DNA from: a virus
Taxonomy: Duplodnaviria; Heunggongvirae; Uroviricota; Caudoviricetes
Virus record (IMG/VR): IMGVR_UViG_2531839440_000003
Span: 1 to 41,145 of that record
Reading direction: 5' to 3' (one strand)
Length of the DNA stretch: 41,145 nt
In this document: positions 17,931 through 19,398 of the stretch, one piece after another
How positions within the stretch are numbered: position 1 is the first letter of the stretch
Layout: each line of letters starts with the position of its first letter
Program-made: the position numbers and the translations under genes
The notes under the pieces: generated by a model
Database searches by the model: none
What the model saw: only the letters and a program-made list of their open reading frames with translations
What the model was told of the DNA's origin: nothing

Positions 17931-18323
17931 ATGTCTGAACCCTTATCCGGTTCCGGCACGGCTGCTGCGCTGGGTGGCGCGACGGTATTCGGGCTGTTTA
18001 CCGGAATGGATTTCGGGATTGTGTTTGGCGCGTTCGCCGGGGCGTTATTTGTGGCAACGATGCCGCAGTCACTTTCAGTCTGGCGCGTGGTGGCACATTT
18101 TCTGGTGTCGTTTATTGTCGGTGTGCTGGGAGCGCGTGTGCTGTCAGCCTGGATTGCATCAAAAACAGGGTATGACGGTACATCAGCAGATGCGCTTTGC
18201 GCGGTGCTGGTCTCGGTGGTGTCGGTGAAGATTCTCTCGTTCATCCACCAGCAGGATATTGCATCGCTGGTGTCCGGTGTGTTCTCCCGCCTGCGGGGTG
18301 GAGGAGGCGGCAATGTTAAGTAA
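17931..18323 (+). CDS. Putative holin (multi-pass membrane protein)
   Basis: 130 aa, three hydrophobic helices, charged C-terminus; first gene of lysis cassette. Confidence 0.5.
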   Translation: MSEPLSGSGTAAALGGATVFGLFTGMDFGIVFGAFAGALFVATMPQSLSVWRVVAHFLVSFIVGVLGARVLSAWIASKTGYDGTSADALCAVLVSVVSVKILSFIHQQDIASLVSGVFSRLRGGGGGNVK

Positions 18324-18588
18324 CCTTCCCGGATTGCTGAATGTGGCGTTATGCACGGTTATCGTGCTGACGCTCTTTTTTTATCGTCGCCGTGATTCCA
18401 GACATAAACCGCTGGTGTCATGGCTGGCCTGGCTGCTGATGCTGCTGTATGCCTTTGCGCCCCTCAGCTATCTGTGTGGTCGCCCGTTAGCAACGGGCTG
18501 GCTGGAAGTGTTTTTTAATCTGCTGTTCTGCGTGCTGGTGATACGCGCACGCGGGAACGTCACAAAAATCTTTCCATTGTTGAGGTGA
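18313..18588 (+). CDS. Membrane protein of lysis cassette (holin/antiholin-like)
   Basis: 91 aa from ATG 18313 (GGAGG RBS), overlaps previous gene by 11 nt; three hydrophobic segments. Confidence 0.45.
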   Translation: MLSNLPGLLNVALCTVIVLTLFFYRRRDSRHKPLVSWLAWLLMLLYAFAPLSYLCGRPLATGWLEVFFNLLFCVLVIRARGNVTKIFPLLR

Positions 18589-18968
18589 ATATGCCGGGTA
18601 AATTCAGATTCAGCCGTCGCAGTGAAAAAAATCTGGAGGGTGTCAAACCACAGCTGGTTGCTGTAGTTCGCCGTGCGCTGGAGCTGACGGAGGTTGATTT
18701 CGGTATTACGGAAGGCCTGCGCAGTAAGTATCGCCAGAAACAGCTGGTTGCGGAAGGGAAAAGCCAGACCATGAACAGCCGCCACCTGACCGGTGATGCG
18801 GTGGATGTTGTGGCCTACATCGGCAGCCAGGTGTCATGGGAGTGGCCTCTGTACGAGAAAATCGCACAGGCATTTAAGCAGGCTGCCGCAGAGCTGGGGA
18901 TCGCTATCGAATGGGGCGGGGACTGGAAAACGCTGAAAGACGGACCTCACTTTCAGCTGAAGCGATAA
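18585..18968 (+). CDS. Endolysin, L-alanyl-D-glutamate peptidase (peptidase M15 family)
   Basis: 127 aa; SRH...D...H metal-binding pattern (NSRHLTGDAVDV ... GPHFQL) typical of M15 endolysins; start overlaps upstream stop. Confidence 0.8.
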   Translation: MNMPGKFRFSRRSEKNLEGVKPQLVAVVRRALELTEVDFGITEGLRSKYRQKQLVAEGKSQTMNSRHLTGDAVDVVAYIGSQVSWEWPLYEKIAQAFKQAAAELGIAIEWGGDWKTLKDGPHFQLKR

Positions 18969-18975
18969 GTAAAAC

Positions 18976-19010
18976 AAAACCCCGGCTGGGGGAACAGTCC
19001 GGGGTTTTTA
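18976..19010 (+). terminator. Intrinsic terminator after endolysin
   Basis: 10-bp stem AAAACCCCGG/CCGGGGTTTT with 13-nt loop and T-rich tail. Confidence 0.6.
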
Positions 19011-19100
19011 GTTTTCACGTCAAAGGGGAAATTGTGATTAGTGAGTAGGGAGAAAATCCTCGTGGGAAAGTATAAAAGATTCTTTTTGAGGTTGTCCATT

Positions 19101-19214
19101 ATGAAAGGTATTGAAATGGAAACTCCCGCGAGCCTTGATTTGACAAGGGCTGCGGCCTTTGCAATTCGCCTTGTGGCGGTCGCTGTTCTGATTTGGGCTG
19201 TGCGTTGGTGGTGA
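19101..19214 (+). CDS. Small single-helix membrane peptide (37 aa)
   Basis: MKGIEMETPASLDLTRAAAFAIRLVAVAVLIWAVRWW; stop 1 nt before next ATG. Confidence 0.3.
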   Translation: MKGIEMETPASLDLTRAAAFAIRLVAVAVLIWAVRWW

Positions 19215-19215
19215 T

Positions 19216-19398
19216 ATGGCGCGAAAACACTGGACACACAGAATGCCGCGAACGGCGGTGAAACGGGCACTGGTAGCGATACTGGTGCCTTTTTTATTGG
19301 TGGGGTGCGTCAGCCTGGATAAGGCGCGCCAGCTTTTCGATACCGCGTCTCAGGTCTGTGAAATTGTCGACGGTGTTCGGCAGTGTCTGCAGAACTGA
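19216..19398 (+). CDS. Putative lipoprotein (possible outer-membrane spanin-like component)
   Basis: 60 aa with signal peptide and lipobox LLVGC. Confidence 0.45.
   Translation: MARKHWTHRMPRTAVKRALVAILVPFLLVGCVSLDKARQLFDTASQVCEIVDGVRQCLQN

Follow-up and report, generated by a model that had tools for sequence, protein, structure and literature searches.

It appears that a lambdoid prophage of Escherichia coli may open the outer membrane of its host with a short lipoprotein in place of the usual spanin pair. The prophage is contained in the IMG/VR virus record IMGVR_UViG_2531839440_000003, and the whole stretch analysed, 41,145 nucleotides (nt) long, is referred to below as the window. It is a phiP27-like lambdoid myovirus prophage, of which positions 17931-19398 form the late-operon lysis cassette. 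Five open reading frames (ORFs), all on the plus strand, make up the cassette; the ORF list agrees with the first-pass annotation on their positions. They encode two holin-family membrane proteins, an M15-type endolysin, a 37-amino-acid (aa) membrane peptide (pep) and, at the end, a 60-aa lipoprotein precursor (lpp). We lean towards the view, drawn from gene content and sequence features, that lpp performs the outer-membrane step of lysis without a canonical inner-membrane partner.

The slot occupied by lpp is that of the spanin genes. Phages whose M15 endolysins are 60-72% identical to that of the window (Salmonella phage FSL SP-062, Yersinia phage vB_YenM_22) carry canonical overlapped pairs of inner- and outer-membrane spanin genes (i- and o-spanins) at the position of lpp, which bears out the earlier remark that pep and lpp sit where spanins are expected. 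Within the 41-kb window, lpp is the only credible ORF with a lipobox, no ORF encodes a periplasmic coiled coil behind an N-terminal membrane helix, and tblastn with three i-spanins found no match. Like an o-spanin, lpp has a predicted signal peptide, a lipobox Cys conserved across the family and no retention signal, and its gene follows that of the endolysin. No protein of the window, pep included, combines an N-terminal transmembrane domain with a sizeable periplasmic domain, as an i-spanin does. Of 279 Stx phages, 277 have Rz, and the two without it are the P27-like Stx2e phages (Pinto 2021, PMC8136144).

The fate of lpp in the two inspected phages that do carry Rz and Rz1 points in the same direction. 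The O104:H4 prophage has a copy of lpp (locus L092 of the survey described below, 3001-3184), preceded by GGTGATATG, which is frameshifted and contains an in-frame stop. This copy sits 3' of Rz and of an ais-like phosphatase cargo gene, and 5' of the terminase. In phage GER2 only a remnant of lpp is found (L087, 3501-3668), with no intact ORF left at that position. Thirty-five E. coli records fall into the corresponding band of 60-80% identity to lpp, and the four listed ones have no annotated gene under the match. The Rz of an Rz-bearing phage does not occur within 4 kb of any locus with an intact lpp. Decay of lpp in the presence of Rz/Rz1 is the pattern expected if the two were functionally redundant. 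Comparison of the loci establishes the slot equivalence of lpp with Rz/Rz1.

The survey comprised the 80 closest IMG/VR loci plus reference phages. It is biased to close relatives of the window, and so are the frequencies of the architectures in it; a scan of genome contigs returned 3 loci only. Without exception in the 80+ related loci, lpp closes the lysis cassette, on the same strand, and the packaging genes 3' of it vary from locus to locus. It stands behind three different cassettes: holin_8, holin_3_7 and an M15 endolysin; holin_8, holin_3_7 and a GH108 endolysin; or a lambda-S-type holin and a GH108 endolysin. The last of these is found, without pep, in Lelliottia, where lpp overlaps the end of the endolysin gene.

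The interval between the endolysin gene and lpp is variable. In the window, the M15 endolysin gene is followed by a hairpin, pep and lpp. In 26 loci without pep, lpp begins 14 nt after the stop codon of the M15 endolysin gene. The interval is filled by a 93-aa ORF and pep in phiSTEC1575-Stx2k, by a minus-strand gene of 90 aa in phiP27 and by a KilA-N gene in vB_Apl-pPE4, all three with an M15 endolysin. With a GH108 endolysin, either pep or other small membrane peptides precede lpp. Altogether, pep is missing from about 34 of the 86 surveyed lpp loci (~40%), among them that of phiP27, a viable phage. Conversely, canonical Rz/Rz1 genes are immediately preceded by a pep of 86% identity in the O104:H4 Stx2a prophage (L092, 1682-1795), in phage GER2 (L087, 2169-2282) and in O157:H7 prophages (L094, 2001-2114); in one more strain, the gene before Rz encodes a variant of 28 aa. 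Whether pep is followed by lpp or by Rz, the junction reads CGTTGGTGGTGATATG. Indeed, the whole unit of hairpin, leader and pep is common to the window and the Stx2 prophages, and is followed by lpp in the former and by Rz/Rz1 in the latter. Judging by these arrangements, pep and lpp are independent of each other.

The junction between the endolysin gene and lpp (or Rz) is an insertion hotspot, with inserts at L088 2365-2928, L084 4444-5004, L003 3154-3435, L060 3661-3995 and L095 1669-1812. Depending on the phage, it holds the KilA-N gene, the 93-aa ORF, the minus-strand 90-aa gene or unrelated small membrane peptides. A 186-aa ORF in the hotspot resembles Bro-N/antirepressor proteins by eye.

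The distribution of pep bears directly on the possibility that the two gene products make up a minimal two-component spanin with non-nested genes, in which lpp would be the o-spanin and pep an i-spanin of an unconventional, type-I or tail-anchored, kind. The two genes are indeed adjacent in the spanin slot and translationally coupled, with a single nucleotide between the pep stop codon and the lpp start (TGATATG), and both are under purifying selection. An inner-membrane protein with a C-terminal transmembrane domain has also been raised as a possible i-spanin (Kongari 2018, PMC6139136). However, the same peptide precedes true Rz/Rz1 genes in the Stx2 prophages, and this Rz-linked type accounts for 667 of the 855 pep records in E. 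coli, whereas many lpp loci, that of phiP27 among them, do without pep altogether. Moreover, pep exposes no more than 16 residues beyond the membrane, too few for a periplasmic domain of any note, and lacks a Cys that could bond with those of lpp. Nine of the 29 pep protein clusters are frameshifted or truncated. A pair of this kind is highly improbable in our estimate, and pep cannot be called an i-spanin equivalent. The minimal Rz/Rz1-like pair suggested in the first-pass annotation thus had to be given up, because pep lacks a periplasmic domain, precedes genuine Rz/Rz1 and is absent from many lpp cassettes. The alternative offered there, an unrelated envelope module, is right in part: pep is a separate and more widespread unit, but lpp behaves as part of the lysis module.

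A spanin pair that includes an lpp homologue has already been catalogued. In SpaninDB, phiP27 is listed with a 'separated' two-component spanin, both components of which are singletons (Kongari et al. 2018, PMC6139136). With 62 periplasmic residues it is the shortest pair of that set, in which the range is 62-300; the 30 residues of mature lpp plus the 16 or fewer of pep fall below this range. The o-spanin of the phiP27 entry (NC_003356, 20706-20861) is the lpp homologue, read from its second Met. The i-spanin (NC_003356, 20348-20542) is a TTG-start ORF that runs antisense to the minus-strand gene of 90 aa (L001, 3877-4071 on the plus strand and 3861-4133 on the minus strand, respectively). 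The minus-strand gene is conserved at 46% identity in another locus, in which the plus-strand i-spanin frame is broken, and neither the window nor most of the cassettes have the i-spanin ORF. This evidence makes the i-spanin entry look spurious, so that an orphan lipoprotein would be all that is left of the 'pair'. The cassette is then already catalogued but mis-described, and is best filed as an o-spanin-like lipoprotein without an i-spanin; the o-spanin label is a prior computational classification that is supported here by position. The correction concerns the shortest 'two-component spanin' in the database, since it appears to be built on a spurious i-spanin. In the GenBank record of phiP27, a further coding sequence, L32, spans the lipoprotein gene in the wrong reading frame.

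The lpp gene (19216-19398, plus strand) belongs to phrog_7528 (E 1.5e-35). Its 60-aa precursor starts with a long basic n-region (MARKHWTHRMPRTAVKR), which is followed by the h-region ALVAILVPFLLVG and by the lipobox LLVGC at residues 27-31, with Cys31 as the lipidated residue. The mature part, CVSLDKARQLFDTASQVCEIVDGVRQCLQN (19306-19395, plus strand), is 30 aa long, helical and amphipathic, with a hydrophobic moment of 0.53, no Pro, a net charge of about -1 and Val at position +2. Its hydrophobic residues are spaced in a heptad-like manner. Homologues of ~50% identity, which constitute a second subfamily (EKARNWFGVAADVCDTVxKIKDRC), retain both this pattern and the three Cys (residues 1, 18 and 27 of the mature part). 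An AlphaFold2 model built from 22 sequences consists of one long helix (pLDDT 65), a confidence too low to support fold searches. Under the Lol sorting rule, a lipoprotein whose residue +2 is not Asp is sorted to the outer membrane. With its lipobox and no Asp at +2, lpp would be expected to be sorted there.

lpp is a real gene under purifying selection, with ratios of non-synonymous to synonymous substitution (dN/dS) of 0.19-0.44 relative to the copies in Salmonella, Citrobacter and Shiga toxin-producing E. coli. The family is restricted to Enterobacteriaceae prophages. Of 5426 complete E. coli genomes, 352 carry lpp; among its bearers are toxin phages of the Stx2e and Stx2k types and prophages of enterotoxigenic E. 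coli (ETEC). The first ATG is the start of lpp, since residues 3-9 (RKHWTHR) are conserved and Met10 is not. Met10, the start of the 51-aa PGAP call, was rejected, as this position is occupied by Thr, Ile, Val or Ala in many homologues.

For lpp, neither Pfam (E <= 1) nor NCBIfam scans gave a relevant match, PHROG returned only a family of unknown function, and a profile search of the family against PDB sequences found nothing meaningful. A PHROG match to an 'Rz-like spanin' (E 0.048) was discarded, as it covers the signal peptide only. Alignment of the lpp family with O157:H7 Rz1 by hhalign gave a probability of 3.6%, again over the signal peptide only, hence no homology. With the E. coli Braun lipoprotein, the hhalign probability was 43%, mostly over the signal peptide. 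Ungapped comparison of the two mature parts scored only slightly higher than shuffled sequences (p 0.03-0.13), the peaks falling at heptad offsets. A weak lead from this comparison is that the hydrophobic heptad of lpp may have the same register from the lipid-bearing Cys as that of Braun's lipoprotein.

The signal peptide of lpp is itself unusual. Its h-region is invariant in 22 aligned homologues, more so than much of the mature part, and the region as a whole is uncommonly long and basic. This may be taken as a sign that lpp is one half of a spanin-like bridge whose partner is not pep but a 'holin' protein, a host protein or an uncleaved form of the lpp precursor anchored by its signal peptide. 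The heptad pattern and the two extra Cys would also suit a disulfide-bonded coiled-coil pairing like that of Rz/Rz1 (Kongari, PMC6139136). Yet no phage-encoded candidate is common to all contexts, Lelliottia having a different holin and no pep, and two helices of 30 residues would still be short for the width of the periplasm. Furthermore, the h-region differs in distant homologues. We regard a bridge of this kind as distinctly unlikely. Since the invariance of the h-region extends to synonymous sites, it may reflect a constraint on the RNA rather than on the protein.

Indeed, codons 17-27 of lpp contain a terminator-like RNA hairpin that is specific to the plus strand (19265-19296, the hairpin itself at 19265-19290 being followed by U6). 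It has a stem of 10-11 bp with 2 G-U pairs, a GCGA loop and a folding energy of -23 kcal/mol (z -5.9), as against -9 kcal/mol on the minus strand. Codons 20-24 and 26 show zero synonymous variation in 35 distinct sequences, whereas about half of the other codons vary. The block is nearly unchanged in the Lelliottia homologue, which is 58% identical to lpp and in which the flanks are only ~50% identical; the sole change converts the loop from GCGA to GCAA. Covariation that would back the hairpin is not present.

A hairpin of this type inside the gene also matters for a reading in which lpp is not a lysis protein at all. lpp could be a moron, that is, a lipoprotein for lysogenic conversion or superinfection exclusion like Cor, Llp or Bor, and phiP27-like phages would lyse without any outer-membrane factor. 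Small Cys-containing lipoproteins do serve in receptor blocking, as exemplified by Llp of T5 and Cor of phi80. The site before the packaging genes and the variable inserts between the endolysin gene and lpp are typical of moron sites, and terminator-like hairpins flank the unit. In addition, no spanin is annotated in Serratia phage Scapp, which has a similar cassette, so that lysis without spanins may be tolerated. However, the conserved hairpin inside lpp would prevent its expression in lysogens: it would block unmodified RNA polymerase, which fits a toxic late gene better than one expressed by the lysogen. Together with the upstream Q-type antiterminator, the hairpin could be a safeguard against leaky expression of such a gene. 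With a spacing of 14 nt from the endolysin gene, or an outright overlap, a separate promoter could not be accommodated. Furthermore, lpp co-segregates with lysis modules rather than with those for tails or receptor binding; behind pep it replaces Rz/Rz1, and where Rz/Rz1 are present it has decayed. In view of these features, the moron is a rather unlikely alternative.

The hairpin that precedes pep (18976-19015) is G+C-rich and is flanked by an A-run before and a T-run after it. With -23 kcal/mol (z -4.0) on the plus strand and -22 kcal/mol (z -4.9) on the minus strand, it looks like an intrinsic terminator for both strands. It is kept upstream of pep in the Stx2 prophages, with a different inner stem. 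Further terminator-like hairpins of the late operon are found at 17107-17126 and 17893-17908.

The following course of lysis can be proposed. The two holin-family proteins, by virtue of family membership, would permeabilise the inner membrane, and the soluble T5-type M15 peptidase, by homology, would cut the cell wall. The product of the last gene, a 60-aa precursor presumably lipidated at Cys31, would become a helical, Cys-containing lipopeptide of 30 residues in the outer membrane. If the comparison of genomes is a guide, lpp would there carry out the step that is done by Rz/Rz1 in other lambdoid phages. It may do so without a canonical i-spanin, either alone, for instance as a disulfide-linked oligomer of amphipathic helices, or with some other partner; both modes are conjecture. 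Hairpin, leader and pep would constitute a unit placed before the outer-membrane lysis gene or genes, be they Rz/Rz1 or lpp.

Several considerations weigh against assigning this role to lpp. The accepted mechanism of spanins is a periplasm-spanning complex that fuses the two membranes. Mature lpp, with 30 aa, is too short to bridge the periplasm and has no conserved inner-membrane partner, so that this mechanism cannot apply as such and the actual one is a matter of conjecture. Homology of lpp to Rz1, colicin lysis proteins or any protein of solved structure could not be detected, and confidence in its predicted fold is low. The argument from decay in the presence of Rz/Rz1 stems from essentially one phage lineage, and the survey of loci is tilted towards relatives of the window. 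The hotspot character of the junction, together with a classical moron site before the packaging genes, means that lpp could be cargo. Finally, no experimental work on any member of the pep or lpp families was found in the literature.

A bolder idea, which we put forward only tentatively and consider possible though doubtful, is that lpp represents a third kind of outer-membrane lysis factor, a partnerless helical lipopeptide of 30 residues that weakens or breaks the outer membrane. It would differ both from the membrane-bridging spanins and from the cationic disruptin, and might work through disulfide-linked oligomers or through interference with a host component. If this were true, pep would be a general helper peptide for outer-membrane lysis lipoproteins, Rz1 or lpp. 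To our knowledge, the disruptin is the only worked-out alternative to spanins. Some 13% of the phages that infect Gram-negative bacteria lack a recognisable spanin (Kongari 2018, PMC6139136). The lpp cassette offers a tractable E. coli case, in which the sole candidate for the outer-membrane step is a 30-residue lipopeptide unable to work as spanins are thought to.

lpp resembles several known systems in part. It shares with Rz1 the character of an outer-membrane-type lipoprotein, the length of the precursor (60 aa versus 61 aa for Rz1 of an O157:H7 prophage) and the last place in the cassette, after a pep unit that also precedes Rz/Rz1 in Stx2 phages. The first-pass description of the two small proteins as far smaller than Rz/Rz1 therefore does not fit the lpp precursor, but it is apt for the 30-aa mature part and above all for the 37-aa peptide. 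Unlike the Rz/Rz1 pair, lpp has no i-spanin beside it, and whereas Rz1 of O157:H7 is proline-rich, the mature part of lpp is a helical stretch of 30 aa with no proline and 3 Cys. The unimolecular spanin gp11 of phage T1 is, like lpp, the product of a single gene at the end of the cassette and has an N-terminal lipoprotein signal. Unimolecular spanins have a C-terminal transmembrane domain and a periplasmic domain of ~100 residues. By contrast, lpp ends 29 residues after the lipidated Cys, without a second hydrophobic segment.

Colicin lysis proteins (bacteriocin release proteins) and entericidins are mature lipopeptides of ~21-35 residues that permeabilise the envelope without an inner-membrane partner. 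In the case of the pCloDF13 bacteriocin release protein, the signal peptide itself is stable and functionally relevant. In size and type of lipobox these lipopeptides are comparable to lpp, a resemblance that can be drawn on by analogy only. lpp has no match to Pfam Lysis_col at E <= 1, is helical with two extra conserved Cys and, unlike these proteins, is encoded in a phage late operon and not in a colicin operon. The disruptin gp28 of phage phiKT, a non-spanin disruptor of the outer membrane (bioRxiv 10.1101/515445), is likewise a small single protein proposed to replace spanins in a phage that lacks them. It is described there as cationic and similar to antimicrobial peptides, whereas lpp is a lipoprotein with a net charge near -1.

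As for the peptide upstream, pep (19101-19214, plus strand; phrog_4493) has the sequence MKGIEMETPASLDLTRAAAFAIRLVAVAVLIWAVRWW and is preceded by a GAGG ribosome-binding site 9 nt upstream. It consists of a short acidic N-tail and a single C-terminal hydrophobic helix that finishes in RWW (hydrophobic segment at about residues 16-34, computed as 36-54 of a 57-aa ORF with a GTG start). The 57-aa version was rejected, because a 5-nt indel upstream of the ATG at 19101 breaks its frame in the Stx2 copies. Since the stretch up to the GAGG site and the ATG itself are conserved in these copies, the 37-aa start is the right one. pep is a real gene under very strong purifying selection. Relative to the copy in the O104:H4 Stx2a prophage, it shows 19.5 synonymous and 5.5 non-synonymous differences (dN/dS ~0.03), and the replacements are all conservative (swaps among I, V and L, etc.). 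Like that of lpp, the family is restricted to Enterobacteriaceae prophages. The DNA of pep was detected in 854 of the 5426 complete E. coli genomes, in most cases in the Rz-linked form.

In major Stx2 phages, pep separates the lysozyme gene from Rz/Rz1, and its annotation there goes no further than 'hypothetical protein' (WP_000675931). Scans of Pfam, NCBIfam and PHROG with pep returned only a PHROG family of unknown function. With tblastn against the phage collection pep gave no match, although DNA and annotation searches do find it in phage records; the low-complexity filter is suspected. A minus-strand promoter-like site lies near pep at 19098-19069, the number of such sites being that expected by chance. 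A type I toxin-antitoxin role for pep was set aside, given the chance level of promoter-like sites and the coupling of pep to the downstream lysis genes. From its conservation and distribution, pep is a separate, more widespread and strongly conserved small inner-membrane protein that is dispensable for the cassette. That it is an accessory or regulator of the last lysis step is a guess. Lcc6 of Shewanella phage LambdaSo (65 aa; bioRxiv 10.1101/2024.01.23.576932) is similarly short, crosses the membrane once and is encoded within or close to its lysis cassette. Both peptides accompany a cassette already equipped with a holin and an endolysin and, in the case of the Stx2 phages, with a spanin. 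However, Lcc6 acts at the holin step and pep is placed specifically before the outer-membrane genes; no sequence relationship is expected between them. pep is thus a 37-aa membrane peptide under strong selection, located before the spanin genes of major Stx2 phages (O157:H7, O104:H4) and unstudied so far.

The three genes at the head of the cassette proved to be as the first-pass annotation had described them. The first (17931-18323, plus strand) is preceded by an AGGAGG ribosome-binding site and encodes a 130-aa membrane protein with 3 hydrophobic segments that matches Phage_holin_8 (E 3e-23) and phrog_198; in an identical prophage, PGAP calls it a 'putative holin'. The second (18313-18588, plus strand) shares 11 nt with the end of the first. 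Its 91-aa product also has 3 hydrophobic segments and matches Phage_holin_3_7 (E 1e-21) and phrog_217. Both Pfam matches are above the gathering score, and both genes adjoin that of the endolysin. The 125-aa endolysin (18591-18968, plus strand) matches Peptidase_M15_4 (E 7.5e-13, above the cut-off) and the endolysin family phrog_465 (E 4e-75), and is 40.8% identical to the lys product of phage T5 over 97% of its length. It has no N-terminal membrane segment, in keeping with a soluble enzyme. The sequence contains SRHLTGDAVD and GPHFQ, which we take to fit the zinc-site pattern of M15 peptidases. The enzyme is related to the L-Ala-D-Glu peptidase of T5, and is not a lambda-type transglycosylase.

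The window DNA is 100% identical to prophages in many ETEC genomes and ~91% identical to phages phiP27 and phiSTEC1575-Stx2k. PGAP gene calls for all five cassette genes are also present in the identical E. coli prophages. A Q-type late antiterminator (14530-15084; DUF1133 and a weak Phage_antitermQ match) is followed by a DNA methylase gene, three tRNA genes, which are the sole Rfam matches of the window, two cargo genes and the lysis cassette. On the 3' side of the cassette are an HNH endonuclease gene and the terminase genes. The two cargo genes, located at 17269-17843 between the tRNA genes and the cassette, encode a TerB-family protein (141 aa) and a DUF3927/TciB-like membrane peptide (50 aa). 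In phiP27 their slot is occupied by the Shiga toxin genes stx2e A and B.

Some further observations were made along the way. The record PP818812.1, 'Actinobacillus phage vB_Apl-pPE4', was deposited as a phage of Actinobacillus pleuropneumoniae and has ~91% DNA identity to the lysis region of the E. coli prophage; its host attribution may deserve a check. Downstream of the cassette, a 42-aa ORF with a good ribosome-binding site (19572-19700) contains a perfect 21-bp tandem duplication (19639-19680), which doubles the residues EMSGQH(V/A) and is absent from some related copies. In the early region, a 51-aa ORF (12127-12279) encodes a toxin of the Hok/Gef family (Pfam HOK_GEF, E 2e-22), which suggests a type I toxin-antitoxin locus.

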